Position numbers and translations under genes: made by a program. A DNA stretch of 55,093 nt from an uncultured Clostridia bacterium. GTDB lineage: Bacteria; Bacillota; Clostridia; TANB77; CAG-508. The first letter of the stretch is position 1; each line of letters starts with the position of its first letter. The notes below the pieces were generated by a model. That model saw only the letters and a list, made by a program, of their open reading frames with translations, searched no databases and had not been told where the DNA came from. Below are positions 7,728 to 52,201 of the stretch, piece after piece. The DNA lies in the NCBI GenBank assembly GCA_947625665.1, contig CANQPF010000002.1:1-55093 (forward strand), written 5' to 3'.

Positions 7728-7769
7728 AGTAATCCCTCACATTCTTCTTACAAAATTTCACTTATTCAT

Positions 7770-7798
7770 ATATTAGACTTTTTTTTTATCAATATCAA
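7770..7798 (-). promoter_or_regulatory. Predicted sigma-A promoter of module 3: TTGATA, 17-nt spacer, TAATAT
   Basis: On the minus strand the sequence reads TTGATA-TTGATAAAAAAAAAGTC-TAATAT, about 40 nt upstream of ATG 7727. The same hexamers and spacing recur upstream of module 2. Confidence 0.45.
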
Positions 7799-7954
7799 TA
7801 CTCTCATTTCGACCATTTCTGCGATGTAACAATTTTGTTTCTAGGGAAGGTCGTTTTAGCTTTTTTGATTTACTTTTGTTAAAAATTATTTACATTATTA
7901 TTACACTTTCTACTTTTTTAGACGTTTTTCGCTGAAAGATCGAATTTCCGTAGG

Positions 7955-7988
7955 TTTTTCCACTGTAATATTCATTTTTGTGGAAAAA
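7955..7988. promoter_or_regulatory. Conserved palindrome TTTTTCCAC-N16-GTGGAAAAA about 160 bp upstream of the predicted promoter; a candidate regulator-binding site
   Basis: It is a perfect 9-bp inverted repeat. An equivalent element sits at the same distance from the promoter at 23473..23505. Confidence 0.4.
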
Positions 7989-8132
7989 TATTTTTTTCAA
8001 AAATTTCTTGACAAGTAAAATTTTTTGTAATTTTTTTATATGTTATGTTCCCCATTTTTTCGCGTTTTTTTACTCTTTTACACATTAGATTTTCTTAAAA
8101 TTATTGCTTAATAGAAACTCTAAAGTGTAATT

Positions 8133-8174
8133 AAAAAGGGCAACCATTTTTATTATTATGGTTAAACCCTTTTT
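8133..8174 (-). terminator. Rho-independent terminator after the module 2 B-type gene
   Basis: On the minus strand the hairpin is GGGTTTAACCAT-loop-ATGGTTGCCC followed by TTTTTAATT, about 30 nt after the stop at 8204. Confidence 0.5.
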
Positions 8175-8203
8175 ATTTATTTATAAGAAGATGTTTGCTA
8201 TAT

Positions 8204-17501: not shown

Positions 17502-18168
17502 CCGCTACGAAACTGTTTGGAGCTGCAAAGAGACCAGTTTGCCCCATATTGCCCGGATTTGGTGGATTATTCTCGATAAACTCGTAATCCACAAAAGCGT
17601 CTAGTAAGCCTTGTAGTGTGATTCCAGGGTGTCCAGGAGCCTCCATGCTACCCAAAGGAGCTTCGCTCGCACCAGCTCCACTGAATGTTGCCCCTCCAAA
17701 GTGTGCCCCGGAAAATTGATTTAAGATAGGGCATATTTTAGACCAAACTAACTTCTGTGAATCAGAGTATGTTGTATATCCATGTTCCGCATCCCATATA
17801 GCCTTTTGTGCTTGTCCAAAAGTTACACCATTTAAAGTAACCCAAAGTGCAGTCCTATAGGTAGCATCATATTTAGACCTCCATTTTTCCTGCCCATCCT
17901 GGCCATAAAGGATTACGAAATCTGGTTCAAATCGTAGCTCTCCATAAAATTTATAAGGCGTGCCAGTACTTATACCTTTACCATGGTTTCCACAAAAAAC
18001 TTCTCCTACTCCATCTAATGAATAGTTTCCTGTGGCATTTGCTCTGAAGGTATAGTTTCCCTGTGGTGCAGGTATTGATGAGGCATATGCTTTTGCAATG
18101 AAGTAAAATGCTACAATTATTAACAATGAAATTATTATCTTTACTATATTTTTAATTTTTCGTTTCAC
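17428..18168 (-). CDS. N-terminal segment (246 codons) of the split module 2 B-type adhesin, carrying the signal peptide and the putative thioester-like head
   Basis: The start is GTG 18168 with SD AGGAGG 8 nt upstream. The signal peptide is MKRKIKNIVKIIISLLIIVAFYFIAKAYA. The head motifs are GEVFCGNHG and FGQAQKAIWDAEHG. Confidence 0.8.
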   Translation of the reverse strand: MKRKIKNIVKIIISLLIIVAFYFIAKAYASSIPAPQGNYTFRANATGNYSLDGVGEVFCGNHGKGISTGTPYKFYGELRFEPDFVILYGQDGQEKWRSKYDATYRTALWVTLNGVTFGQAQKAIWDAEHGYTTYSDSQKLVWSKICPILNQFSGAHFGGATFSGAGASEAPLGSMEAPGHPGITLQGLLDAFVDYEFIENNPPNPGNMGQTGLFAAPNSFVAVEQHWERSRRWPQVYKNRTVGLQP

Positions 18169-18187
18169 CTATCTTACCTCCTTTCCT

Positions 18188-21100
18188 CTAAATTTTTCTC
18201 CTTATTTTATTTGTGTTTAATACTTTTTTTCTAATAAAATATATTCCTAGTCCTGTAATAACTACTACCACTAGAGCTAATGAAGTATATACAACTCCTG
18301 AACCTGTTTTTACACTAACTATTAAATCAGCTCCACTATAGTCATTTTCATTTTTATCTCCATTTCCTGGTACTGAGTTAATATCTTCAGTTCCTTCCTC
18401 ATTATATGCTTCAATTATCTCTGCTGTATTTCCCATAATTCCAGTATTGTCATCAGTCATTCTCTTTGTTAGTATAAGTGGTACTATCTCGCTATCACCT
18501 GGTGCTATTGCTAAGTCTTGTAGACTATTTGTCCTTAATGTAGCTCCTGTTTGATACCAATCATAGTTCATTTCTGAACTAAATACTAAATCTTGTGGTA
18601 AATAATCTTCTATTGTTTTTACATATCCTGAAACTTCACCAACATTTCTTACTTCAAGATAATATTCTATTATTATATCTGCATCTTCCATCTTCTTTCT
18701 GTCTAATTCAACTTTTGCTAATGTTTCTTTATCATAATTGTATTCTTTAATATCTCCATCACTTGTTAATACATATATTGAATTTATGTATTTCTTTAAT
18801 TCAAAATCGAATTTTCCTGTAGTTACTAAACCTATATTTATATCAGATATATTATCGTTTTCTTCAACTTTTAATACATCTGTTATTCCATAAATTTTTT
18901 CTTCTCCGTCTAAGTCTAGTCCTTTTGAAATGGCTTTAGAATTTTTACTTGGATCTACTCCTGCTTTTTGATATGCTGTTACTTTATACATAGCTGTATC
19001 ATATTCAAATACTGCTATATATTCCCCTGCAGGTATGTCTTCAAGTACATATTTACCTGTGCTATCTGTTGTTCCTTGTATTTCATTTCCTTCTTCATCT
19101 GTTGCAAATTCATTCGTTTCAACGTCTAATAATTTTACATCCATATTTTCAACTGTATTTTCATAACTATCTTTAGCTCCGTTTAAATCTCCATCTACCC
19201 AAGCATATCCTGATATTGTTGTTTGTTCTTCTGGTTCTTGATATGGATAATCTTGTTCATCTCCTGAATCTGTTCCTGGATTTCCTCCTGGATTTTCAGT
19301 TGGTGTTATTCCTGGATTTCCAGATGGTGCTATCGTTGGATTTCCTCCTGGATTTCCACTTGGTGCTACTGTTGGATTTCCTCCTGGATTTTCAGTTGGA
19401 GCTGTTGTCGGATTTTCTCCTGGATCTTCAGTTGGTGCTGCCGTTGGAGGAGTTGTAGGTGTAGGTGCTTTTAACGTGTACGTTATTTCTGAAGTTTCAT
19501 TTAATCTTACTCCATCTTTTTCTAATATAGCTTTGTTTTTCATTTGTATATCGTTAGTTATATTGTAATCATTGGTTATCATTGTTTTTAATATTATTTT
19601 CTTTGTTTCATCTGCTTCAAAATTCGTTCTAGTTGAAAATTTATTTCCTGATATTTCTAAATCTGTTGTTTCTCCTGCTTCATTTGTTTGAGTAGCACCT
19701 AAAAGTATCATTCCGTATGGTAGCTCATCTTTTATTAGGATATCATTTTTTTGAATTTCACTTTCATTTTTTACTTCTATTGTAAAATTTATTTTTTGTC
19801 CTGGATTGACATTTCCACTTTCTACATCTGAAGTTAACTTTATGCTTAATCCTTTATCTTGTTCAACCTTAATTTTTGCTCCATTTGCTCTATATATATT
19901 ATTGTTATATTCTAATTGGCTATTAACTGATAAACTTTTTATTTCATTAGTTCCATTTATTTTAAATCTTCCAAATATTAATATATTTTGATTTGGTCCT
20001 ATTTCATCTATTGTATATGTATTTTCGCTTATTCTATTATTATCGTTCATTTTCCACATATATAAAAGTTCTATTTGTTCTGGAAGATTCCATGCAACTT
20101 TAACATTTTTTATTGTTTCTTGTGTAGTATTTGTTACCATTATATTCATTGTTGTTTCTTCACCTACTAATGCATAAGAACTCATAAGTTGTTCAAATTG
20201 TGTTCTTATTTCAATACCATCATTTTCTTCTCCTACTGTTAAATCTATTTGATTTGATTGAGCTTGTGTATTATTATAGTTAACAATTACTTGTTCACTT
20301 ATTTTTGAAGTAGATACTGCATCATGTAAAACTTTTACTTTTATTTTTTGATCTACTTTCTCTCCTACTTTAATTTCGGGGATTTGTATTTGAACTGTTC
20401 TATCTTCTAATTCTTTGTACATTCCAAATGTACCATTATACTCATCTGCTAATAATACTGTTCCATCTGGTACATTTGCTGTCATCTGTACTCCTGTTAA
20501 GTCTTCATCTCCTGTATTTTTAAGTTCTACATTATATTCAATTACTTCTCCTCTTTTTACTTCTGTCTCATTTGATAAATTATCTTGTCCGACAGTAGCT
20601 GTTAAGTTTGCTGATAATTCTGGACCTTGTGCTGTTTTTAATGCTATAGTTGTTGCTTTAACTTCTTGTATTTTGTTTGTTTGATTATCATTATATGTTA
20701 CTGAATATCCTTGATACATTGATTGTTTATATTGTAAATTTGCTGGTACTTCTATGTTATATCCTACTTTTATTTCTTGGCCTACATCCATTTTTGATGT
20801 TTGTATTAAATATTTTTTTATAGCTCCTGGATTTCCTATTTCTGATTGCCATCTATTGTTTACATCTTCAACATCGTCTGTTGCTGATTCATTCTCTGAA
20901 TAATATATTCTTACTTCATTTGGATCTATTCCTTCTACTACTAGAGGTGATCTTAGTACTGCGTCTATATTATTTTCGTATTCATCTCCTCCAATTTTTG
21001 CTGTTCCTTTTGTTCCGAAAGTTCCTAATATTTTTACATCTTGTATCTCTGTTGAATTATTATTTGTAACACTTGATTGAATTGGCAAAACTTTTGCTTC

Positions 21101-23245
21101 TGCATTTATTGGAATTGATTTTTTTATTCCTTCATCTTCTCCTTTTGTTGTTATTCCTAGAGCCTCTATATCATTTGTTGTTATTAAACTTTTTGGTGAT
21201 ACTATATCTATACTTGTTTCTTCTGTTCCATTAGCTTGCCCATCTTTATATTGGTTTGCTTTTGCATTTGTATATGTCATTTTTATCGTATCTTGTTTGC
21301 TTATTGCTTTATCATTTAATTTTAAGTTTGCATTAATATCTATTACAGTTCCTTCTGTTCCCGCTTCTTTATGTCCTTTTTGCTCTCCTTCTAAGTCTAT
21401 TCTTACTGCTTGTTTTCCATCTATTATTCCTTGAGATGACCTTATTTGAGCAAATTCATCTCCAAATATTTTGTTTATACTGTTTACTTTTACTTCTTGT
21501 ACATCTACTGGGAATTCAATTATTATTGAAGGGTTCATGTATAAATCTTGTTCTTGTGAATTTGATTTTAATGTAGCCTTTATTTCTACATCTTCATTTT
21601 CTTGAGTTGTTGATAAACTGTTTGTACCCACTTCAAGCTTAGCTTCCGTAGTTGATTCTTTCAATTCCATATTTGCTGTTGTTGATTCTTTTGTCATGTT
21701 AGTTGTAACTTCTGGACTTGCAACTAATTGTTTAATTAATTTTATTACTCTTCTTGATTGATTTGTTACTCCATTTACTAATTTTGTATTTAATACTGTT
21801 ATTTTACCTTCTACTTGTGGTTTTGTTGTTTCAATTGAAATTCCTTTTTGTCCATCTTCGTATTTTACTCTTATTATTCCTTCTTCATCTGCTTCAGTAT
21901 CTTTTGTTACTTCTGCTATAACATTTCCTTCTGCGTCTTTTATAGTAACTTTTCCTTCTTCTCCTAACACATTTATTAATTCTTCTTTGTTAAATTTAGT
22001 TTGTTTATACATGATGTTTTCTGCTGGAATTAATCCTGCTCCTTGTTCATTTATATATATGTTGTTATTTGTTTGTAATGCTATATTATCTATTCCCTCA
22101 ACATAAGATACTGTTATATCATTCTTTTCTATATAATCTATACTTTTATCTTCATTTTCATATAAATACCCTTTATATATATTTCCTGCTAATTCTGTAT
22201 TTACTGTAACCATATTTCCTATTGGGGCTACTGTTAATTCTTGAGAGTCTTCTTTTACTATGTTATCTTTTACTGTATATAGTGAACTTGCAACCATTGT
22301 TTTTAAACTTATAGGTGTTTCTGTCAATTCTGCTGTATCTGAATATCTATATACTACAGTATATGTTCTTTTATTTTCTTTTGCTTCTTCTTCCCATTTT
22401 ATCTCTTCATCTGTATTTGTATATTCAAATCTAAGTATACCTTGATTATTATACCTTACATTTTCATTGTTTACGCGCTCGCCATTAATAAGCACTACTA
22501 TTGATTCAGGTTTTTTATCATGAAGCATTGGAATTTGTGTTTGAACTACTTCTGATTTTACTGGAACTGTATTGTTAGCTACTTCTGCTTCTATTTCTTG
22601 TTCTAACAAAGTTCCTTTTTCACCTAAACTAAAGTATTTGCTTATTGATTGTTTTATATTAACATCTTCATTAGCTGTCCATATTGGTTTGATTTTTACC
22701 ATTCCTTCAACGTCTTTTTCTTCTTGGTCTTCGTTTAAATATTTTCCATTTATTTTGATTTCTATCTCTTTATCAAAATAACCGCTGTCTATTTTTTCCT
22801 GTCTCTTGAAGTTAATTGGTAATTCAATCAATGCTGTATTATTAGAAGATATGTTTTTTATTTCTATTTCATTTGTTTTTGTATTAACTTTTCCTAAATA
22901 TTTATTTTTCTTTAATTCATCTTTGTTAATACTAAAATTAGGATCTTCTATTTTTATTGTTGCATTTGATAACGAATACTTGTCTTTTACTGCAATTTGT
23001 AAATTTAAAGTTTGCAGTTCGTTTATATTCAGTTCTTTCTCATGCAGTATATTGTCACTTGCAAAAAACGCATCAAACTTGATGTTTTCCCCTTTCGTTA
23101 TCGTTTCTTGATTTTCTAATGCTTCTTCCATAGCAATAACTACATTGCTCCCTGCTACTACGCTATGTGCAAACAAAATACAGAAAACAACTAATATTGC
23201 TATTAGTTTTCTTGCTAAAAGTCTAGTTTGTTCACTTCTCTCCAT
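18188..23245 (-). CDS. A-type giant surface protein of module 2 (1685 aa): DUF11-like repeats, Pro/Gly linker, SdrD-B-like domain and an SVKTG sorting signal
   Basis: The N-terminus MERSEQTRLLARKLIAILVVFCILFAHSVVAG..KGENIKFDAFF..ATIKIEDPNFSINKD aligns with the 1608-aa paralog. An SdrD-B-like stretch is DVKLLDVETNEFATDEEGNEIQGTTDSTGKYVLEDIPAGEYIAVFEYD. The C-terminus is DINSVPGNGDKNENDYSGADLIVSVKTGSGVVYTSLALVVVVITGLGIYFIRKK. Confidence 0.88.
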   Translation of the reverse strand: MERSEQTRLLARKLIAILVVFCILFAHSVVAGSNVVIAMEEALENQETITKGENIKFDAFFASDNILHEKELNINELQTLNLQIAVKDKYSLSNATIKIEDPNFSINKDELKKNKYLGKVNTKTNEIEIKNISSNNTALIELPINFKRQEKIDSGYFDKEIEIKINGKYLNEDQEEKDVEGMVKIKPIWTANEDVNIKQSISKYFSLGEKGTLLEQEIEAEVANNTVPVKSEVVQTQIPMLHDKKPESIVVLINGERVNNENVRYNNQGILRFEYTNTDEEIKWEEEAKENKRTYTVVYRYSDTAELTETPISLKTMVASSLYTVKDNIVKEDSQELTVAPIGNMVTVNTELAGNIYKGYLYENEDKSIDYIEKNDITVSYVEGIDNIALQTNNNIYINEQGAGLIPAENIMYKQTKFNKEELINVLGEEGKVTIKDAEGNVIAEVTKDTEADEEGIIRVKYEDGQKGISIETTKPQVEGKITVLNTKLVNGVTNQSRRVIKLIKQLVASPEVTTNMTKESTTANMELKESTTEAKLEVGTNSLSTTQENEDVEIKATLKSNSQEQDLYMNPSIIIEFPVDVQEVKVNSINKIFGDEFAQIRSSQGIIDGKQAVRIDLEGEQKGHKEAGTEGTVIDINANLKLNDKAISKQDTIKMTYTNAKANQYKDGQANGTEETSIDIVSPKSLITTNDIEALGITTKGEDEGIKKSIPINAEAKVLPIQSSVTNNNSTEIQDVKILGTFGTKGTAKIGGDEYENNIDAVLRSPLVVEGIDPNEVRIYYSENESATDDVEDVNNRWQSEIGNPGAIKKYLIQTSKMDVGQEIKVGYNIEVPANLQYKQSMYQGYSVTYNDNQTNKIQEVKATTIALKTAQGPELSANLTATVGQDNLSNETEVKRGEVIEYNVELKNTGDEDLTGVQMTANVPDGTVLLADEYNGTFGMYKELEDRTVQIQIPEIKVGEKVDQKIKVKVLHDAVSTSKISEQVIVNYNNTQAQSNQIDLTVGEENDGIEIRTQFEQLMSSYALVGEETTMNIMVTNTTQETIKNVKVAWNLPEQIELLYMWKMNDNNRISENTYTIDEIGPNQNILIFGRFKINGTNEIKSLSVNSQLEYNNNIYRANGAKIKVEQDKGLSIKLTSDVESGNVNPGQKINFTIEVKNESEIQKNDILIKDELPYGMILLGATQTNEAGETTDLEISGNKFSTRTNFEADETKKIILKTMITNDYNITNDIQMKNKAILEKDGVRLNETSEITYTLKAPTPTTPPTAAPTEDPGENPTTAPTENPGGNPTVAPSGNPGGNPTIAPSGNPGITPTENPGGNPGTDSGDEQDYPYQEPEEQTTISGYAWVDGDLNGAKDSYENTVENMDVKLLDVETNEFATDEEGNEIQGTTDSTGKYVLEDIPAGEYIAVFEYDTAMYKVTAYQKAGVDPSKNSKAISKGLDLDGEEKIYGITDVLKVEENDNISDINIGLVTTGKFDFELKKYINSIYVLTSDGDIKEYNYDKETLAKVELDRKKMEDADIIIEYYLEVRNVGEVSGYVKTIEDYLPQDLVFSSEMNYDWYQTGATLRTNSLQDLAIAPGDSEIVPLILTKRMTDDNTGIMGNTAEIIEAYNEEGTEDINSVPGNGDKNENDYSGADLIVSVKTGSGVVYTSLALVVVVITGLGIYFIRKKVLNTNKIRRKI
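19278..19445 (-). repeat. Imperfect in-frame 36-bp (12-aa) tandem repeats encoding the Pro/Gly linker APxxNPGGNPTx
   Basis: Units starting with ggatt begin at 19278, 19314 (a 24-nt partial unit), 19338, 19374 and 19410. The protein reads APTENPGGNPTVAPSGNPGGNPTIAPSGNPGITPTENPGGNPGT. Confidence 0.8.
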
Positions 23246-23287
23246 AGTAATCCCTCACATTCTTCTTATAAAAATTCATCTAATAAT

Positions 23288-23316
23288 ATATTAATTCGTT
23301 TTTTTTTTAATATCAA
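23288..23316 (-). promoter_or_regulatory. Predicted sigma-A promoter of module 2: TTGATA, 17-nt spacer, TAATAT
   Basis: The minus strand reads TTGATA-TTAAAAAAAAAACGAAT-TAATAT, with the same hexamers, spacing and distance to the ATG as at 7770..7798. Confidence 0.45.
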
Positions 23317-23472
23317 TATGTGAATTTTCTCTCTTTATCTAGTGTTAAGCTTTCATTACTAGGGAAGGTTATTTTAGCTTTTTTATTTTTCTTTTATTAA
23401 AATTTGTTTATATTCTTATTACATTTTTCGCATTTTTAGACATTTTTCTCCCAAATCTTTATTTTCCGTAAG

Positions 23473-23505
23473 TTTTTCCACTGTCATATTTATTTTTGTG
23501 GAAAA
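23473..23505. promoter_or_regulatory. Second copy of the conserved palindrome: TTTTTCCAC-N16-GTGGAAAA
   Basis: The arms, the 16-nt spacer and the offset of about 157 bp from the -35 hexamer match the copy at 7955..7988. Confidence 0.4.
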
Positions 23506-23507
23506 CT

Positions 23508-23545
23508 AAAAAAGTTCCTAAGCGTTTTGCTTAAGAACTTTTTTA
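23508..23545 (-). terminator. Rho-independent terminator after the module 1 B-type gene
   Basis: The minus strand reads AAAAAAGTTCTTAAGC-AAAAC-GCTTAGGAACTTTTTT. The stem has one mismatch and a T-run, and the element lies just after the stop at 23559. Confidence 0.6.
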
Positions 23546-23558
23546 ATTTTTAGGTATC

Positions 23559-26500
23559 TTATTTAGTTAAAACTTTTTTCTTAATAATTACAATTCCTGT
23601 AGCTAGTATTGTTAATGATAATATTACTGTTCCTATGATCATTATATATGTTATTCCATTTCCACCTGTAGGTGGTGTAATCGTTGTTGTTTCTGCCATT
23701 GTACTATCTGATTCAACATTTGATGCTAGTTTTACATCTCCAGTATTTTCATCAAATATTTCTTGTAGTGATAATGCTGGTATGTAGTTTCCTGGTGTTG
23801 AGATTACATCTCTTCCTCCATGAGCTTTATATACATGTGTAACTTCTGCTTCATTAGATAATTCAATGTCTCCATCTGGGTCTAATATCTTAGAAACTAC
23901 TAGTGATGCTTCTTTTGTTTGTAATGGTTCTAAGTCTTGTTTTAATATGTCAGATTCTAATATTGATACTTTCTTTACTCCGTTACTATCTTTTACTTCT
24001 TGTGAGAACATTTCAAATGTCTCTGAAGTTACTGGATCTGTAAATGTATGGTTGTTTATAAGTGTATCTGCTTCTACTGGTGTCCATCCATTGTTTAGGT
24101 TAGTTTGAGATTCTCTCTCATATCCCCAATCTGAATCTAGATAGTCTATTACTTGTTCTGCACTAAGTGTTCTAACTTTAGCTGAACTTGATGGCGTACC
24201 ATAGTTATAGAATTCAACATCTTCATAATCTAACTCACTCTTGTTTTCTACTTTGAATTTATATTCAACCTCTAATGTACTTCTTTGAGCTATTTCTTTA
24301 TCGATTTCTATTTTTAATTTACCATTGTCTGATTTACCTGTTGGTGCTAAGTATACGAAACTATCTTGTACACCTTCTACATTTCCGCTTTCATCAATTG
24401 TTGCATCTACTAAAGGTTGATTGTTCTTTAAGATTAATTTAATTCTACTTACACGTTTTCCTAATTCTAGATCTTGTCTTGCTCTTTCAATTATTCCAAA
24501 GTCTACATGTGGCACTTCATAAGCTAACATGACATCTTTTGTTGTACCTTCATTTATTTCTGTTTCTGTAACATTTAAATCTGTAAATTCAACTGTTATA
24601 TCCATTGGTGCTGAAGTTGATACCATATCGATTAATTGTGTTTTGTCTGTTCTATTTGTGTTTTCATAAACTTGATGTATTAATCTATTATCAATTTGTT
24701 GTCTTATTTCTTGGCTATCTTGTGCATCTGTATATCTTGGATCTTGAGTTAAATCTTCTTTATATTCTTTGTACCATTGAAGATTGTTCATTTTTCTTTC
24801 CCATTCATCTTTAGGTTGAGTTGTTCCTTTGAAGTCTTCTGCTGAATATTTCATTGCTTTTTCAACATCTTCATCGCTTAGACTTTCAGCTGTTTTTCTG
24901 TTTTCTAGATCAGCATAGTATGTTTTTCCTCCCCAGATGAATTGGATTAAATATTTTCCTGGTACAAATCCTTCTAGCTTATATGTTCCTGCATCTTCTC
25001 CAGTTCCTGCAACTGACATTGCTGTTATTTCTCTATAATCATTTGGATCTATAGGATCCGTTTTTTCAGAGTTTTGTGAATAATCTTTTGCAAGTATTGG
25101 ATTTCCTGATGAGTCTAGTTTTGGTTTTCCTGTTGGAGTACCATTTTCATCTACTTCTGCTTCTACTAACCTTACTCCGATTCCTGCTATTCCAGGTTCT
25201 GTAGCTGCATTATATTTTCCGTCTCCTAATCTTGATTTTCCAGGAGCTGTTGCGTCATCTGCAAATTCTGTTCCTTCTGGTAAATCTTCAAATACATTTC
25301 CTGTTGTGTATCTATTTCCTCCTGCATATTGTAGGATGAATCCTGGTGCTATATCTGTATCATCTTCATAAGTATTTACATCGTCTGGTGTAGCATTTGC
25401 TGGAGCTGAGTCTTTGTCAATTCCTGCATATACGTTTCCGTCTTTATCGAATGATGTATATGAAGATACTTCTGCTACGTTCTCTAATGGACCTTGAGGA
25501 TCTTCTTCATTTTCATTCATTACTAATATTCTTTGTACTGTTTCTCTATCCATTAAAAATTGTACGTATATTTCCATAGTATTGTATTCTTCTGGTATTT
25601 CTTCTACTTCTCCAGTAGTTTCATTTTTCTGCTTACTTGCTTTTCCAGGTTCTATTATTGTATCTGGTGTAGCTATTTTTACTAAGTTATATTTTTCATT
25701 ATAAGTTCCGTCTTCATATTGTAATACTGAATCGTCTGTAATCATACCTTTTTCGTCTATTTGTGAACCTACTTTATATACTTTTCCGTATTTAGCATCA
25801 TAGTAATCTAGTATGCCATTTATTCTTGCTCCTAAAGTTGTAGATTGGTTTACAAAGCTTATTTTGTATGTTACTGCTACATCTAATTCATTATCTTTAT
25901 TTTGATTTTCATCTATAAATGTTGCATCTGATTTATAGATTGGTCTCTTATATGTTTGTGATAATTCACTTTGGAATCTAACTCCTATGTTAAATCCTTC
26001 TGTATATTTAGTATATTCTTCAGTAGGTTTTAATCTATAATTATATGTGTGGTTATATCCATTTATTCCAACTATTGCATTTTGTACATCTTTTATTAAT
26101 GCTATATCTGGTTGTTCTCTCTTATACAAACCTAAGTTTATATATTTGACTTCTTCTACATATCCGTATGAGAAATGACTATAAATATCATATCCTGCAT
26201 TTTCAGTATTTGCTGTTATTGGAGTTTCTAGGTTTGTGTAATCTAAGAATGATTTGTTTACATCTTCTCCTTCACCTCTTGTATATTTAAGATTATATGT
26301 AACATTTCCGTCTTTTCCCTTTGTTACTCCTGTATTTTCTGTTGGATTATCTCCTTCTACTGAATTAAATCTTTCATTAAATTCTTTCCTTACGTCTTCT
26401 CCTTCTTCAGCTTTTGATCCATTATCTAAGTCTATATGTTTTATTACATTTGTATATACTAATCCATTATATTCAAATTCTATATAGTAGTCTTCTAATT

Positions 26501-38119: not shown

Positions 38120-39158
<1,039 letters not shown>

Positions 39159-45539: not shown

Positions 45540-45782
45540 TTATTGAAGTTCTGTTTTTACTGTATTGATCTCTGTTGTAGTTGCTTTTTGGGCTGGTTGA
45601 TAATATCCTTTTGTTTGTGCTATCTTAAATAACTCATATTGAAAGCTTTCTCCATTGTTTCTCATTTGTTGTATAGTTTGTCTTAAATTCATATTTTCAG
45701 CTTCTAATATAACTCCTTGATATGTTTTTATATCACCTTTTGTACTTTCAAGAATATCGTTTACCATTGTTTTTTCGTCCAT
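45540..45782 (-). CDS. Spore coat protein F-like (Coat_F domain) protein
   Basis: ATG 45782 follows SD GAGGAAAGGAG. The product reads MDEKTMVNDILESTKGDIKTYQGVILEAENMNLRQTIQQMRNNGESFQYELFKIAQTKGYY. The track's longer 132-aa form overlaps the upstream gene and is unlikely. Confidence 0.65.
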   Translation of the reverse strand: MDEKTMVNDILESTKGDIKTYQGVILEAENMNLRQTIQQMRNNGESFQYELFKIAQTKGYYQPAQKATTTEINTVKTELQ

Positions 45783-45844
45783 AAGTTTTCTCCTTTCCTC
45801 TATATTTTCATGTTTTTTTACAATGCCTTTATTTTGTAAATACA

Positions 45845-46042
45845 CTAGTTGTTTAAAAATGTCATCAATTTTTGTTTCGTGTTTAATGCATCTTGTGCTG
45901 ATTTTGTAAATAATTGTTTTATTTGCGGATCTACACAATTTTGAGCATAATCATTTAATTTTTGATAAGATGTTTCGTGTGCTCCTATTAAATGTCTTAA
46001 GTTTTGTAATTCCACTTGATTTAAATCTGCCACAATAATCAT
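45845..46042 (-). CDS. Spore coat protein F-like small protein
   Basis: The product contains LNQVELQNLRHLIGAHETSYQKLNDYAQNCVDPQIKQLFTKSAQDALNTKQKLMTFL. The start may be GTG 46033, because ATG 46042 abuts the SD. Confidence 0.6.
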   Translation of the reverse strand: MIIVADLNQVELQNLRHLIGAHETSYQKLNDYAQNCVDPQIKQLFTKSAQDALNTKQKLMTFLNN

Positions 46043-46111: not shown

Positions 46112-46140
46112 TTGATTTTTTCATAATTTTATGGTATAAT
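46112..46140 (+). promoter_or_regulatory. Sigma-A promoter with an extended -10 box for the deaminase-LOG gene
   Basis: TTGATT is followed by a 17-nt spacer and TATAAT, with TGG directly upstream of the -10 (TGnTATAAT). It lies about 60 nt before ATG 46203. Confidence 0.6.
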
Positions 46141-46202
46141 GGTTTTTAATATATTTTACTAAAATTGTGGCTTAAAAGACTACAAAAATAAAGGAGGGAA
46201 GA

Positions 46203-48713
46203 ATGAAGAACTTAGAATTTTTCGGTAAATTTTTTCTAGACAAAGAAAAAGATATAATTGTAAATTTATATAAATCAAACCCTGATGAGCTTACATATAT
46301 TTTGGAAACACCATATCATAATACTGGAAATTTGATTACTAACTTAGCGAAAGTTTGTGGCGTTTCTACTGTTAAGAATGAGTTTGATATGAAGATTATA
46401 AAAGGCACTTTACCAGCTTGTATTAATGGCGATAATAAAGAGGTCTTTATTTTTCGTCTCGGTGGTATAAAAATTGCTAATATTTACTCTGACGGTAGAA
46501 TTGAGATTAAAGCTAAGATACCTGCAATTACAAAAACGTTAATGTCTCAAACAAAGGATTATGATTTTCCAGCTAATAAAACTATTGTTAAATCATATAT
46601 TTTCAAGAAATCTAAATTTAGAACAGACTTACATACTCACCAAAATGCAAATTTAACTGCTAATTGCTTGATTGCTTTAGGTCTTAGTCACCAAGTTAGA
46701 TATCCTCTTTATTACATTAAAAAACTTAAGTTAAAAATGTCTCCTTCACAAGAGGAAAAAATTTATAAGCAAAGGATTTTAGTAAAAAAACAATTTGCTA
46801 ATTGTGGTTTAGAAGGTAAATACTTAACAAGGAAAATTGACGATAATACTTTTATAAATTTTGCAGACTTTATTTTTAATAATTTAGAGAATGCTGAAGA
46901 AAATATAAATAAAATTAGAATCAGTTTATCAATATTAAAAGATGGTCAGGCGGTTTTTACAAATTTAGAAAAATTATATCTATATCGCTATGTTTTTGCT
47001 AAAGGTGTTGAAAGTTCAGATAAAATTGAGATTACTCCAGAAATGGTTAAAAGCTTGACTGATAGAAGTATTAGAATAAAATTAAAGAAGATGTTAGATG
47101 ATAAATCTGAGAATAGTGTTTATAAAAATAATACTTTAAGACAAGATAAATTACTTTGGATTGCAAGAGCTTATAAACGTCAAGGTATTTATTATACTGA
47201 AATTGCTAACACAGATTTATGTAAGAAAGGGTTACCTGCAATTGAGTTTCTAGAAGAAGTTCATGAAATTATGCCTGAAATCGAAAAAGAAACTGGTGTT
47301 AAAATTAGATTTTTAGCTGCTATTCGTAGAATTCCTTTAACTATTTTAAATTCTCCTCAAGATAATTACAGTTATTTAAGAGAGAATTTGGATGTAATTA
47401 AAACTGTTGCTAAAAGTCCTTATGTTGTAGGTAGCGATTTCATTGGTGAAGAAATCAATGATATTAGTGAATTAAAACCTGTTATAAAAGAACTTGTTGA
47501 ATATGTTAATAATGAAGATAAAGATTTTGTTATTCGTATTCATGCTGGTGAAAATGATAGTTTACGTGATAATGTAGCAAAATCTATTGAATGTATAAAA
47601 GATAGTTTACAACCTGGTCAAAAAATGCCAAACTTCCGCCTTGGACATGGATTATATACAGCTGATTTAGCATCTAAAGAAGGTAAAGAGCTTATGAAGG
47701 TTATGAAAGAGACTGGTGCTGTTCTTGAATTTCAGTTAACTTCTAATGTTCGTTTAAATAATTTAAGTAACTTAAATAATCACCCTTTAAAAACTTATTT
47801 AAAAAATGATGTTAATTGCGTTCAAGGTACTGATGGTTGTGGTTTTTATGGTATTGATACAATTGATGAACAGCTTGCTCTTCAAAATTTGCTTGGATTA
47901 AATGATGATGATTTTATGAAGATGAGAGCGGTTGAAGATAGAATTATCAATAATAGTAATAAAGTATTTGAGCGTAAGTCAAAAGCTTTTAAAAAGCTTA
48001 TTGGAAAAAATACTATGAGAGAAGTTTTACTTAATCTTGAGAATAAAATAATGTCTGAAAGTTCTAAAAATCCTATTAAATTACGCCTAAATAATGACCT
48101 TGATACAGCAGTTGCTTTAAAAGAAAAAATTAAAGATTTGCCTACCGATAAAGTTCCAATTATTATTGCTGGTGGTAGCTTTAACGCTAAAGGTAGAGAA
48201 ACAGCTTTAACTGAAGATGGTAAGAATTTCTTAAAACAACTTCTTTCTAGAATTGATAGTGAAAAAGCATATTTTGTTGTTGGTCATAAAATGAATGGCT
48301 ATGAGAAAGCAGTTTTAGATATGGCTCATAAATTAAATAAAAATTTTGAAGTTAATGCAATTGTACCTAAAACTGTTAGTAAAGATGTTGAGTATAGATT
48401 ACAAAATGAATCAGTTGATGGTATTTGTATATCTCCTGAAACTGAGGATTTTGGTATTTATAAAAGTTTTAATTATGAAATATTTGAACGTAGAAGTTCA
48501 GTCGTTATCGCTTTTGATGGTAATTCACCTGTCTCTAATTTAGTTCAAGAAGCTAAAAATGGCAAAGGCAAGGCTAGAATCTATGTTAATGAAGAAATTC
48601 CTACTTTAAAAGAAAAGGCTTCTTCTTTACATGGATATGTTGTTCCTTTCAATTTAGATGATGATATTACAGATAGAATTTTAGAAGAAAATCCAGAGAT
48701 TGTTGCTAACTAA
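46203..48713 (+). CDS. 836-aa fusion protein: unknown N-terminal domain (about aa 1-140), an adenosine/AMP-deaminase-family metallo-hydrolase domain (about aa 140-600), and a degenerate LOG/SLOG-like Rossmann domain (about aa 648-800)
   Basis: The deaminase motifs appear in order: DLHTHQ (aa 142-147), VVGSDFIGEE (408-417), IHAGEN (446-451), LGHG (480-483), QLTSNV (511-516) and QGTDG (541-545). The LOG-like layout is VPIIIAGGS, YFVVGHKMNGYEKAVLDMA, FEVNAIVPKTV and FERRSSVVIAFDGNSPVSNLVQEA. Confidence 0.7.
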   Translation: MKNLEFFGKFFLDKEKDIIVNLYKSNPDELTYILETPYHNTGNLITNLAKVCGVSTVKNEFDMKIIKGTLPACINGDNKEVFIFRLGGIKIANIYSDGRIEIKAKIPAITKTLMSQTKDYDFPANKTIVKSYIFKKSKFRTDLHTHQNANLTANCLIALGLSHQVRYPLYYIKKLKLKMSPSQEEKIYKQRILVKKQFANCGLEGKYLTRKIDDNTFINFADFIFNNLENAEENINKIRISLSILKDGQAVFTNLEKLYLYRYVFAKGVESSDKIEITPEMVKSLTDRSIRIKLKKMLDDKSENSVYKNNTLRQDKLLWIARAYKRQGIYYTEIANTDLCKKGLPAIEFLEEVHEIMPEIEKETGVKIRFLAAIRRIPLTILNSPQDNYSYLRENLDVIKTVAKSPYVVGSDFIGEEINDISELKPVIKELVEYVNNEDKDFVIRIHAGENDSLRDNVAKSIECIKDSLQPGQKMPNFRLGHGLYTADLASKEGKELMKVMKETGAVLEFQLTSNVRLNNLSNLNNHPLKTYLKNDVNCVQGTDGCGFYGIDTIDEQLALQNLLGLNDDDFMKMRAVEDRIINNSNKVFERKSKAFKKLIGKNTMREVLLNLENKIMSESSKNPIKLRLNNDLDTAVALKEKIKDLPTDKVPIIIAGGSFNAKGRETALTEDGKNFLKQLLSRIDSEKAYFVVGHKMNGYEKAVLDMAHKLNKNFEVNAIVPKTVSKDVEYRLQNESVDGICISPETEDFGIYKSFNYEIFERRSSVVIAFDGNSPVSNLVQEAKNGKGKARIYVNEEIPTLKEKASSLHGYVVPFNLDDDITDRILEENPEIVAN

Positions 48714-48730
48714 ACAACATTAATTCAACA

Positions 48731-48783
48731 AAAAGAGGGCATCTTGTGAACTATTTTTAGTTCATAGAGCTCCTCTTTTTTTG
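48731..48783. terminator. Bidirectional hairpin terminator between convergent genes
   Basis: The structure is AAGAGG..TGAACTA-TTTT-TAGTTCA..CCTCTTTTTTT. Confidence 0.6.
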
Positions 48784-48796
48784 TTAAACATTTTTT

Positions 48797-50428
48797 CTAT
48801 AAATCAGTATCGAAAATTTTATCTATTACTTTTCCTATTAGATCAGTCGATTCGGATTTTTTATTGCTAAAGTCCATGTCCCACATTACTTCTAAATAAT
48901 TTTTGCAAACATAATAAATGTTTTCAATAACTTCATCTGTTAAAATTTGTGTATCCGAACTTCTAATTACGTCTAGTTGTCTTTTTACAGGTATTGGTGT
49001 TCCAAATGCTACTGCATACGTATAATAATCTTCCCATAATTCTATATATTCTATGTTTTCGTCTTTCATTAATGAGTATTTCTTTATTTTATTTTCAAGT
49101 TCTTTTATATTGTAGTAATCATTCAAAATTGCATAGTCGTGTTTTATCATGTGATCATCTGTTGACAGTATCAAAAGTGTTACGCCAAGGAGTAACAGGT
49201 CATACATAATGTATAATTCTTTTCCAAATGATGCGTATATTATCATCATTAGCATTGTTGCAAATATAATTGAAATAGCTTTTGCTATTAATTTTCTTCC
49301 CGTGAGTCCTTCCGTTACTTCAGAAAGTGCTTTGAAAAGATTTCTTAATACTCCTATAATTGCTATTGATAAAACATATATAATTGGAATTATTACTACT
49401 ACAAAAATACCTATAAACATTGCATATATTGCTTCTTGTGTTGTTATTTTTATGTTTAGTCCATTTTTCATTATGTGGTTTATTATTAATATTATGCTTA
49501 TTACCAACAATACATTATTTACTAGCCTTAACCATATTGGCACTGCATTATAGTTTGCTCCCATTGAATTTAATTTTTCTTTTGTTCCTGCACTTATACT
49601 TTTTATCTTTTCGTATGATTCTGATGAATCTGCTAAATCTTTCATTCTTTTGACTATATCTATCTCGAATTCGCCGTTTTCTCCTCTTCTTATATAATTA
49701 TGCTTAATTACTCCATTTTCAAAGTTGGCTTTTTCTTCGAATATCCATCTGTATATTACTAGTTCTGTCATATCCATTTGATAAGTGCTTTCTTTGTTTT
49801 CAGAAATATAGTATTTATAATTTATTTTTTCGTTTTCTCCTTGAGATTCTATATTTATATTCAGCTTTTTCTTGTTTACTAAGTTCAGTATTACTGCTAA
49901 TATATCTCGTAACATTACATCTCTATTTTGTGCTATACATGCTGCAATAAGTGGATTGTATTTTTTAAATATTTCTTCATCTCCCATTGGTTTATAATCT
50001 ATAATAGTTTCTTTTTCAAATAGGAATAACAGAGTTATCCAATACACTAGCAGGACTACTGATACAATTATTATTAATGCGTTGTTAGTATTGTATTCTT
50101 CCTTTGATATATTGGTGTTTCCGTCAAAGATGTCTTTTACAAAATTATCATGTAAATATTTCCCTATAGTTGTTTTTGTAACACTTCCATCTAAGTTAAC
50201 TATTGATACTTCTTCACCTAGTATTTGCGTTTCTTTTTTTACTGTTGACGCTAGTTTATGTTTTTCTATATTGGTTGGCATGCTATAGATTAAATATCCC
50301 ACTAATCCTATTGTTACAAGCATTTCTAAAATTTTTAATCCTCTATCACGCTTTCGATTAAATACTGCATCATTACCTACTAACAGAGCAATTATTAAGA
50401 TTATTAACGATATAAAAAAGTATTCCAT
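48797..50428 (-). CDS. Polytopic membrane protein, possibly DUF2207-like
   Basis: It has several hydrophobic segments. The C-terminal segment WEDYYTYAVAFGTPIPV resembles the DUF2207 tail; this is from memory and is weak evidence. Confidence 0.6.
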   Translation of the reverse strand: MEYFFISLIILIIALLVGNDAVFNRKRDRGLKILEMLVTIGLVGYLIYSMPTNIEKHKLASTVKKETQILGEEVSIVNLDGSVTKTTIGKYLHDNFVKDIFDGNTNISKEEYNTNNALIIIVSVVLLVYWITLLFLFEKETIIDYKPMGDEEIFKKYNPLIAACIAQNRDVMLRDILAVILNLVNKKKLNINIESQGENEKINYKYYISENKESTYQMDMTELVIYRWIFEEKANFENGVIKHNYIRRGENGEFEIDIVKRMKDLADSSESYEKIKSISAGTKEKLNSMGANYNAVPIWLRLVNNVLLVISIILIINHIMKNGLNIKITTQEAIYAMFIGIFVVVIIPIIYVLSIAIIGVLRNLFKALSEVTEGLTGRKLIAKAISIIFATMLMMIIYASFGKELYIMYDLLLLGVTLLILSTDDHMIKHDYAILNDYYNIKELENKIKKYSLMKDENIEYIELWEDYYTYAVAFGTPIPVKRQLDVIRSSDTQILTDEVIENIYYVCKNYLEVMWDMDFSNKKSESTDLIGKVIDKIFDTDL

Positions 50429-51145: not shown

Positions 51146-52201
51146 TTAATATAAATAGTCCGCTGTTGTACTATCTTCGTCTTCGTCATCACTATAATAT
51201 TGTTCATCTTCGTTTTCATCATAAACTGATGTCGTATTTGTATTAACATCTTCATCTTCATCAGATGTATTATTATTTGAACTTTCACTTTGTGCTTCTG
51301 GTGTTGGCGTTTCTACTGGGGCTTCTGGAATTGGTGCTGCAACTAGTGCTTCATATATACATATTGCATGGAATACAGCTCTTTTTCTTCCTGATGTATC
51401 ACATGTTGATAGTGTTATCATCTTTTTATCTGATCTCGGTTCTATATCATACGTTGTTGTCGTTTTTTGCTTTACTGTGTTTATAAAGTTTTCATAGGAT
51501 TTTAATTCATTTAGTCCTGGTATTATGCTTTGAACATTTGGTTTTTCAGTATAACTTGAGAATACTTGATATTTCATTTTTCTTTGTTCTGTTATTATTG
51601 TTATTTCTATTTGACCTGGTTGAGTACCATCTTTTATAGCATCATACAGAGGCGCAAACATTTTTCCTGTTGTTAAATTATGTCCAAATATTACAGTATT
51701 ATTATCTGTAAAGTTTTTATTATTTTGATAATCCATAAATATACTACCACAAGTGCTATCTTCCTTGTTTAAATCTTTTTTCAAATAATATTCATTATCT
51801 GTTGTTTGTAATACCGGATAATCAATTCCTAATGATTCTATTCTTATCCATGCTACTACATCTGGGTTTGTTTCTTTAAGCTTTGCAAAGTCTACGTCGA
51901 TTTTTACATTTTCATCGTCACTTTGTTTTATTACTTCATCAATTAATTTTTCATGTTCTTTTCCTTCTTTTATATTACTATATGCCCATTGCCCTATTTT
52001 GTATGCTGTTATTATAAATATAATAACGAATATTATTAAGAATATGTTTACTAATTTACTTTTTGTTCTTGATGTACTGTATGGACTAGTATTTTTAGGT
52101 ACATGTGTCGCATATTTATGTGATTTTGTATCTTTAGTAGAAGCTTTCTTTGGAGGTTCTTGTGTTTGTATTTGACTTTTCTTTACTCGTGTATATCTCA
52201 T
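51146..52201 (-). CDS. srtB: Class B sortase with an extended basic N-terminal tail and a Pro-rich/acidic C-terminal tail
   Basis: SrtB-type motifs are NPDVVAWIRIESLGIDYPVLQTTDNEYYLKKD, VIFGHNL and TLSTCDTSGRKRAVFHA. The SD is GGGGAGG. Confidence 0.85.
   Translation of the reverse strand: MRYTRVKKSQIQTQEPPKKASTKDTKSHKYATHVPKNTSPYSTSRTKSKLVNIFLIIFVIIFIITAYKIGQWAYSNIKEGKEHEKLIDEVIKQSDDENVKIDVDFAKLKETNPDVVAWIRIESLGIDYPVLQTTDNEYYLKKDLNKEDSTCGSIFMDYQNNKNFTDNNTVIFGHNLTTGKMFAPLYDAIKDGTQPGQIEITIITEQRKMKYQVFSSYTEKPNVQSIIPGLNELKSYENFINTVKQKTTTTYDIEPRSDKKMITLSTCDTSGRKRAVFHAICIYEALVAAPIPEAPVETPTPEAQSESSNNNTSDEDEDVNTNTTSVYDENEDEQYYSDDEDEDSTTADYLY

Follow-up and report, generated by a model that had tools for sequence, protein, structure and literature searches.

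The DNA examined here, which we refer to as the window, is a stretch of 55,093 nucleotides (contig CANQPF010000002.1, assembly GCA_947625665.1) from an uncultured Clostridia bacterium and derives from a rabbit gut metagenome. It carries an open reading frame (ORF) for an 836-amino acid (aa) protein in which a barrel of the adenosine deaminase (ADA) family is flanked by an N-terminal domain and by a C-terminal domain with a predicted SLOG/LOG fold (Table 1). A first-pass annotation of this DNA had called the ORF and quoted a series of motifs from it; the ORF is real, and each of the motifs is found where it had been placed. The gene had also been described as monocistronic, which agrees with the orientation of its neighbors, as the gene on its 5′ side is divergent and the gene on its 3′ side is convergent. 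In databases, homologs of the protein are labelled either ‘adenosine deaminase’ or ‘hypothetical protein’.

Table 1. Features of the deaminase gene, its flanks and related loci. Positions refer to the window unless a locus handle (L) precedes them.
Feature	Position	Strand	Basis or remark
Coding sequence, three-domain protein of 836 aa	46203..48713 (including stop codon)	+	ORF call; full-length homologs 61-82% identical
α/β N-terminal domain, aa 1-138, family-specific	46203..46616	+	AlphaFold2 model
Adenosine/AMP-deaminase-family (β/α)8 barrel, aa ~139-600	46617..48002	+	Pfam PF00962, Foldseek
Expanded, mostly helical segment, aa ~165-320, from barrel strand 1 to Pfam profile position 78	46695..47162	+
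Catalytic set, H144/H146	46632..46640	+
Catalytic set, H447-A-G-E450	47541..47552	+
Catalytic set, G-H482-G	47643..47651	+
Catalytic set, T-D544-G	47829..47837	+
Helical linker, aa ~601-647	48003..48143	+	Secondary structure of AlphaFold2 model
SLOG/LOG-fold Rossmann-like domain, aa 648-836	48144..48710	+	Foldseek on AlphaFold2 model
Shine-Dalgarno sequence AGGAGG, 5 nt before ATG	46192..46197	+	Read from sequence
Promoter-like site, TTGATT, 17-nt spacer, (TG)TATAAT	46112..46140	+	10/12 matches, extended -10 TG; candidate
Hairpin with flanking A- and U-runs, between convergent genes	48726..48783		RNA folding
Coat_F-domain gene, 5′ neighbor	45540..45938	-	Divergent
DUF2207-type membrane protein gene, 3′ neighbor	48797..50428	- (convergent)
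~150-aa gene family, downstream of distant homologs	L087:9465-9926, L088:7182-7640, L092:8568-9038
~150-aa gene family, further loci	L087:5345-5797, L003:8197-9042, L007:15773-16225

The sequence shows that the middle domain is a metallo-aminohydrolase barrel of the ADA type, in which the set of metal-binding and catalytic residues is complete. The sole Pfam match of the entire protein is A_deaminase (PF00962), which covers residues 321-574 (E 1.1e-15; 58.1 bits, above the gathering score of 27). Likewise, the barrel of a full-length AlphaFold2 (AF2) model, which has a mean predicted local distance difference test (pLDDT) score of 67, matches ADAL and ADA structures when searched with Foldseek (E 7e-7 to 1e-5). 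The motifs are DLHTH at residues 142-146 (nucleotides 46626..46640), VVGSDFIGEE at residues 408-417, HAGE at residues 447-450 (nucleotides 47541..47552), LGHG at residues 480-483, QLTSN at residues 511-515 and GTDG at residues 542-545. The metal ligands H144, H146, H447 and D544, together with the catalytic residues E450 and H482, are invariant both in an alignment of the close clade and among 27 distant sequences that are 22-30% identical. Thus, the Pfam match, the structural matches and the motif positions agree with the earlier assignment of an insertion-bearing ADA-family domain to the middle of the protein.

Classical Add/ADA enzymes (PF00962, TIGR01430) share the fold, the metal ligands and the catalytic Glu and His with this barrel, and they are its closest relatives among solved structures. 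When a profile of the family was compared with sequences in the PDB, the nearest were adenosine deaminases from Plasmodium and enterobacteria (E 1e-22 to 1e-20), whereas Cad1 was matched with an E value of 4e-7 and RdrB (8fnw) with an E value of 1.9. The protein differs from the classical enzymes in its length (836 versus ~330-370 residues), in its added N-terminal and SLOG domains, and in the distance from barrel strand 1 to the HAGE motif, which is greater by about 100 residues. Indeed, H146 and H447 are separated by 301 residues, in accord with the gap of about 300 first reported, and this spacing is about 100 residues longer than in classical ADAs. The Pfam match begins at residue 321, which corresponds to profile position 78, and the expanded segment listed in Table 1 lies upstream of this point. 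This segment includes a clade-specific insert (residues ~266-313, as defined by alignment with distant relatives) and an invariant arginine, R262; its pLDDT is low in parts, and no credible Pfam match was obtained when it was searched alone (E <= 10).

Two further differences from classical ADAs concern residues that contact the substrate. The Asp of the classical ‘HLDG’ motif is Asn148 in this protein and Ala, Ser or Thr in the wider family, an equivalence that comes from aligning a profile of the HxH segment to ADA structures; a single-sequence search of the PDB with the same segment found nothing. The second Asp of the classical ‘(S/T)DD’ motif is Gly545 across the whole family, as evident in both the PDB alignment and the family alignments, and therefore GTDG is not the canonical ADA motif that it had been taken for. 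In the mouse ADA structure, the Asp of ‘HLDG’ contacts the 5′-OH of the ribose, and the second Asp of ‘SDD’ contacts N7 of the purine. Because both of these adenosine-contacting residues are replaced family-wide, the substrate is probably not free adenosine. All NCBIfam matches of the protein are to adenosine deaminase models, and every one is far under its equivalog cut-off (43.5 against 216.55 bits for TIGR01430, and 48.2 against 459 bits for NF006846, or PRK09358).

These observations bear on the simplest reading of the gene, which is that it encodes a plain purine-salvage deaminase, acting on adenosine or adenine, whose extra domains provide stability or oligomerization and bind no regulatory ligand. 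Such an enzyme would fit the ‘adenosine deaminase’ labels of the homologs, the identity of the best sequence relatives, and the presence of a guanine deaminase gene beside the deaminase gene in one subclade, as described below. However, both adenosine-contacting Asp residues are replaced, the scores fall far below the Add equivalog cut-offs, and the residues of the SLOG pocket and the N-terminal domain are conserved as strongly as the catalytic core. We therefore consider a plain deaminase to be quite unlikely.

The C-terminal domain, as modeled, has the nucleotide-binding fold of LOG and SLOG proteins and lacks the LOG catalytic motif. Foldseek aligns the model of this domain (pLDDT ~60-90) with the molybdenum cofactor (Moco) carrier protein (2iz5/2iz7) and with LOG proteins (1ydh/5its/5zbl) at a probability of 1.0 and target-normalized TM-scores of 0.54-0.67. 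No Pfam match is found in the segment at E <= 10, and neither TIGR00730 nor any other LOG sequence family is matched (NCBIfam at E <= 1, Pfam at E <= 10). A LOG/SLOG-like domain with a degenerate PGGxGTxxE motif had been guessed from the order of strands, and both elements of that guess stand: the AF2 model and the structural matches agree on the fold, and the motif is replaced by FDGNSPVSN (residues 771-779), in which Asn779, invariant in the clade, occupies the position of the catalytic Glu. Because of this loss of the motif, a catalytically active LOG enzyme was rejected as an explanation. In the glycine-rich loops, G657, G699 and G773 are conserved family-wide; E701, Q782 and N786 are conserved as well. 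An alignment with distant relatives reveals no family-wide Arg where LOG enzymes have their catalytic one.

The C-terminal domain has its fold and the sequence of its glycine-rich loops in common with the larger superfamily formed by LOG, Moco carrier and SLOG proteins, which includes the SLOG domain of ThsA and the LSDAT domain of TRPM. It differs in lacking PGGxGTxxE, in belonging to no curated family at the sequence level, and in having a deaminase rather than a SIR2 domain, a TIR domain or a channel as its partner. Distant members of the family retain a near-LOG motif (GGGxGVxxD) in the SLOG domain, and 10 of about 40 distant homologs yield weak Pfam matches to LSDAT_prok or LSDAT_euk (TRPM-type SLOG) in the same region. 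The LOG fold, the near-LOG motif of the wider family, and the fact that the ADA family includes adenine deaminases (3rys is among the matches) would all be compatible with a bifunctional catabolic enzyme, whose LOG-like domain cleaves the N-glycosidic bond of (modified) AMP and whose ADA domain deaminates the freed adenine. This scheme is nevertheless highly improbable, given the FDGNSPVSN motif of the clade, where the catalytic acid has been exchanged for Asn, the lack of any LOG sequence match even at E values of 1 to 10, and the lack of a family-wide catalytic Arg.

The N-terminal domain is predicted to be a conserved α/β module, and no relative of its fold was found in the PDB or in BFVD. 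An AF2 model of the first 145 residues, built from a 59-sequence alignment, has a mean pLDDT of 83 and a predicted TM-score of 0.74, and it gives no Foldseek match under an E value of 0.04 in either database. Residues 1-139 searched alone likewise have no Pfam match at E <= 10, and thus the lack of a family assignment for the first ~140 residues, as initially noted, persists. Foldseek matches of the domain to type III secretion system chaperone-like and PprA-like proteins were set aside as not significant. Distant relatives possess homologous N-termini with a conserved ‘LTxFExR’-type helix. In one alphaproteobacterial metagenome-assembled genome (MAG), at L085:7684-10130, the N-terminal domain resides on a separate 101-aa ORF directly upstream of a 709-aa ADA-SLOG ORF, an arrangement due either to a split gene or to a frameshift. 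In the close-clade alignment, mean column identity is 78% along the full length of the protein and is uniform over the three domains, which therefore argues for function in all three.

The family is widespread in gut Clostridia. More than 5,600 homologous protein clusters exist in the protein database, and each of the best 120 is full-length, with an identity of 67-82%. A scan of genomes, one per species, confirmed at least ~575 matches, and the best 80 species-representative matches, with 61-75% identity, all come from uncultured gut Clostridia, including Clostridium sp. CAG:389, CAG:575 and Candidatus Scatovivens. At a related locus (L070), which shares an MreC-MreB-RadC-MecA-M23 block with the window, the ortholog of the deaminase is 64% identical. 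For proteins encoded in this block, identities between the two loci are 76% (MreB), 72% (MreC), 64% (M23 peptidase), 62.5% (RadC) and 45% (MecA), and by this comparison the deaminase gene appears to diverge at an ordinary housekeeping pace. A scan with the family profile found no relative in viral contigs, and there is no PHROG match. In this lineage, the gene is single, chromosomal, without a partner, and vertically inherited at a housekeeping pace.

In the window, the deaminase gene is surrounded by MinC-PBP2-MreBCD-RadC-MecA-M23-PcrA genes on one side and by sortase-AroK genes on the other, a setting of genes for cell shape, division and repair. No defense island or mobile-element gene is present around it there, nor is any CRISPR, RdrA, KomB/KomC or ThsB gene nearby, and no cas genes occur among the annotated genes of the window or in 82 related loci. 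Across these 82 loci no neighbor family is universal, the best one being present in 14 of 77 loci. Synteny is kept within subclades, among housekeeping genes. One subclade has the order NRPS-HtrA-M23-(GuaD)-ADA, where NRPS denotes nonribosomal peptide synthetase, and another has a small alarmone synthetase, the ADA gene, a 223-aa protein and a dCMP-deaminase-like gene, followed by Der-PlsY-GpsA. The GuaD-type gene of 153 aa occurs in 14 loci, in 12 of which it immediately precedes the deaminase gene in the same orientation; its product is nearest to the guanine deaminase of Bacillus subtilis (E 2e-39, versus 7e-20 for TadA).

A sporulation-specific role would have to be considered because a Coat_F gene adjoins the deaminase gene on the opposite strand in the window, and a sporulation link had been raised on account of such CotF-like neighbors. 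The two genes are divergent, however, and no CotF neighbor occurs in any of the 82 related loci, leaving this proposal scarcely tenable. In the interval 45540..46042 (minus strand) there are in fact two small tandem ORFs, of which one is Coat_F and the other (65 aa, 45845..46042) has no family match; neither occurs in the related loci.

We favor, with moderate confidence, the reading that the gene encodes a cytoplasmic, stand-alone deaminase that acts on a phosphorylated adenine nucleotide, is gated by a ligand and serves purine homeostasis. The barrel would hydrolytically deaminate C6 of the adenine moiety, and its substrate would probably be a phosphorylated adenine nucleotide (AMP, ADP, ATP or an ADP-ribose-like compound), for which phosphorylation at the 5′ position is the simplest assumption. 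The SLOG domain would bind a nucleotide-type metabolite and allosterically gate the barrel, possibly via oligomerization that is helped by the N-terminal domain. Through this activity the protein would control the adenylate pool by converting adenine nucleotides to inosine (and on to guanine) nucleotides, thereby feeding IMP/GMP synthesis in gut Clostridia with small genomes. Thus, the role is probably an ordinary one, purine-nucleotide homeostasis, even as the design is unusual.

Viewed in this manner, the protein would be a bacterial counterpart of the large allosteric AMP deaminases (AMPD) of eukaryotes in logic, not in ancestry. Eukaryotic AMPD has a nucleotide as its substrate and is under allosteric control by nucleotides, and it is likewise a large multi-domain enzyme of the ADA family; the analogy that we propose is a functional one. 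AMPD keeps the TDD motif. Its domain architecture is independent of that described here, and the only AMP deaminase that was matched is an ADGF-type snail enzyme (E 3e-10).

Several points weigh against this reading. It is from sequence that we infer both substrate and ligand, and this holds for every member of the family. Loss of the N7-binding Asp could lower activity instead of shifting specificity. The immediate neighborhood of the gene is not conserved clade-wide, as evident by the 14 of 77 loci reached by the best neighbor family, and the link with guanine deaminase is limited to one subclade, where shared ancestry alone may explain it. In addition, the wider family is scattered over phyla, swaps accessory domains (Nudix, Nuc_deoxyri_tr2 and PGDYG) and has a cyclase gene as a neighbor in one instance, which are typical features of conflict systems.

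This wider family comprises 764 proteins among 50%-identity representatives, as determined by an exhaustive search (531 at E <= 1e-10), many of which are 700-1,000 aa in length and ~30-36% identical. The layout of N-terminal domain, ADA barrel and SLOG domain is kept in an aligned sample of distant relatives (22-30% identity), and hosts include Ignavibacteriales, Saccharibacteria, Alphaproteobacteria and other MAGs. Some members carry a C-terminal Nudix fusion, whose best, weak NCBIfam matches are to ADP-ribose (ADPR)-type NtrR and NadM-Nudix models, and a Nuc_deoxyri_tr2 fusion also occurs. Nudix genes are located a few genes away in three distant contexts, and Nudix genes or fusions are present in 4 of 11 distant contexts; other contexts of distant homologs are plainly housekeeping. 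At L090:2588-7816, an ADA-SLOG-Nudix homolog (P0248) is preceded by a weak ADP-ribosylglycohydrolase-like fragment and followed by a TPR-S/class III nucleotidyl-cyclase gene, which is a signaling- or conflict-type arrangement not seen in the clade of the window. Another distant homolog is near TnpV and relaxase genes. The accessory features hint at ADP-ribose or inosine-nucleotide chemistry. Whatever conflict-system flavor they impart belongs to the wider family, as none of them is found in the clade of the window.

Two other associations in the wider family were observed. A family of ~150-aa proteins (‘MTxEYxQSLTELNTI...’, with no Pfam match) is encoded directly downstream of distant ADA-SLOG homologs by genes that overlap or abut them, with translational coupling in one subfamily (Table 1). 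Members are also encoded within ~5 kb of the deaminase gene in two close loci, and the family is absent from the window; it may represent a partner gene in the one subfamily. Separately, a PGDYG-domain protein (27.8 bits; cut-off, 27) is encoded at L083:7082-7750 beside the Ignavibacteriales homolog, and PGDYG matches are also found within two members of the wider family.

The first-pass annotation had emphasized a nucleotide-modifying conflict or stress effector. In the most explicit form of this explanation, the protein is a single-gene anti-phage or stress effector whose SLOG domain senses an infection-derived nucleotide signal (ADPR-type or cyclic) and thereby triggers deamination of ATP or dATP, accumulation of inosine nucleotides and growth arrest, as for Cad1 and RdrB. 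The architecture of a sensor joined to an ADA barrel agrees with this, as do the weak similarities to Cad1 (PADLOC CARF_ADA, E 1.7e-5; Foldseek to Cad1 structure 9c6c, E 2e-3), the patchy spread of the wider family across phyla with its variable accessory domains, and the contexts noted above with cyclase, ADP-ribosylglycohydrolase-like, TnpV, relaxase and Nudix genes. Moreover, the SLOG domain of ThsA in Thoeris is described as a ligand sensor (PMC11204291).

In the lineage of the window, however, the gene behaves as a core gene: it is found in hundreds of species, its rate of divergence and its synteny are those of housekeeping genes, it has no signal-generating partner, and relatives are missing from viral contigs. 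Furthermore, classical ADAs are closer relatives of the barrel in sequence than either Cad1 or RdrB, the PADLOC check returned a weak match at the level of the ADA domain only, and the genes of CRISPR, RADAR, Kongming and Thoeris systems named above are not nearby. We therefore regard an effector role in this lineage as possible, yet unlikely. Because the gene is present in hundreds of species, diverges at a housekeeping rate, retains chromosomal synteny, has nucleotide-metabolism neighbors, and lacks both a partner and mobile or viral associations, a metabolic role is preferred here over a conflict role. Purine salvage, which had been called equally possible, is thus retained as a reading, although it now looks likelier than the conflict role rather than its equal. 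The homologs did not turn out to be a well-characterized housekeeping enzyme family, an outcome that had been named as counting against the effector proposal; the family is uncharacterized.

The protein was also compared with individual immune systems. Cad1 (CARF-ADA) is a type III CRISPR effector that converts ATP to ITP (PMC11645235). The present protein resembles it in fusing a Rossmann-like nucleotide sensor to an ADA barrel. It differs in that the sensor is a C-terminal SLOG domain instead of an N-terminal CARF domain, the genes of a type III CRISPR system are missing from its surroundings, its barrel is nearer to classical ADA, and the gene is core rather than accessory. No CARF domain is evident in residues 1-139 by Pfam or, for the model of the N-terminal domain, by a significant PDB match, and the PADLOC CARF_ADA match was attributed to the shared barrel. 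RdrB of RADAR is also an ~800-aa protein of the ADA family with insertions, but there is no PADLOC match to RdrB (E <= 1), the E value to 8fnw is 1.9, and no RdrA ATPase gene is nearby.

The Kongming system has three components, and its KomB (HAM1-like) and KomC (SIR2) are always found together (PMC13454610). KomA is an ADA-family enzyme as well, in its case one for nucleotide-based immunity, and the protein described here is set apart from it by gene context only: KomB and KomC genes are absent, and the flanking genes, CotF-like on one side and DUF2207 on the other, both run on the opposite strand. With regard to ThsA, neither the protein nor its neighbors match SIR2 or TIR. Therefore, the protein belongs to the ADA superfamily and, at the level of fold, to SLOG, and it is not an Add, Cad1, RdrB, KomA, LOG proper or ThsA protein. 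By analogy, its mode of working may be like that of Cad1 (a sensor-gated ADA) or AMPD (a large allosteric deaminase), without membership in either family. No description of a SLOG-ADA fusion was found in the literature searched, although the 2015 survey that defined the SLOG superfamily lay outside that search.

Recent work on Cad1, RADAR and Kongming has assigned ADA-family enzymes roles in immunity, as effectors or as producers of signals, and here the barrel is joined to a different sensor fold, SLOG, and to an unassigned N-terminal domain. A bolder proposal, which we offer tentatively and with considerable doubt, is that these proteins constitute a new class of stand-alone nucleotide-gated deaminases of adenine nucleotides, in which the binding of a nucleotide signal to SLOG, of ADPR type or otherwise, would switch on deamination of ATP/ADP (or ADP-ribose). 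Fixed as a core gene in gut Clostridia, such an enzyme might act as a ‘brake’ that restrains the adenylate pool in innate immunity or stress, or it might be the first bacterial analog of an allosteric AMP deaminase. Identification of the substrate and the ligand would define either a regulated step that is new to bacterial purine-nucleotide metabolism or a novel logic of defense by a single gene, and would provide a second example of ligand-gated adenine deamination beside Cad1. It would also give a function to a gene now labelled ‘adenosine deaminase’ or ‘hypothetical protein’ in a family that is conserved full-length in hundreds of uncultured gut species and that exists in diverged form across several phyla.

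Expression signals flanking the gene were also evaluated. The site at 46112..46140, which had been proposed as a strong promoter, is present but can be called a candidate only, because sites of this kind occur in the AT-rich stretch no more often than in shuffled sequences (30 versus 24.5 +/- 4.4 expected). The claim that the gene has its own terminator, placed at 48731..48783, fares better: RNA folding reveals a stable hairpin followed by a U-run (-25.2 kcal/mol, z = -6.65), and none of 200 shuffles folds as well. This hairpin, which was missed by a simple terminator scan, is likely to be a bidirectional intrinsic terminator. No riboswitch or other RNA family was detected by Rfam in the whole window or in the 5′ region of the gene, and no RNA sequencing run containing the locus was found.

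Elsewhere in the window, the MreB ORF (38120..38947, minus strand) encodes 275 aa and matches its profile from position 63 on, whereas the ortholog at L070 has 345 aa, a difference that points to loss of the N-terminus, a frameshift or a misassembly. A sortase gene is located at 51146..52201. Five very large tandem ORFs of 1495-2645 aa occupy 2901..32859 on the minus strand, and the one that was scanned has SdrD_B and DUF11 repeats, suggesting that this region is a cluster of giant surface adhesins.

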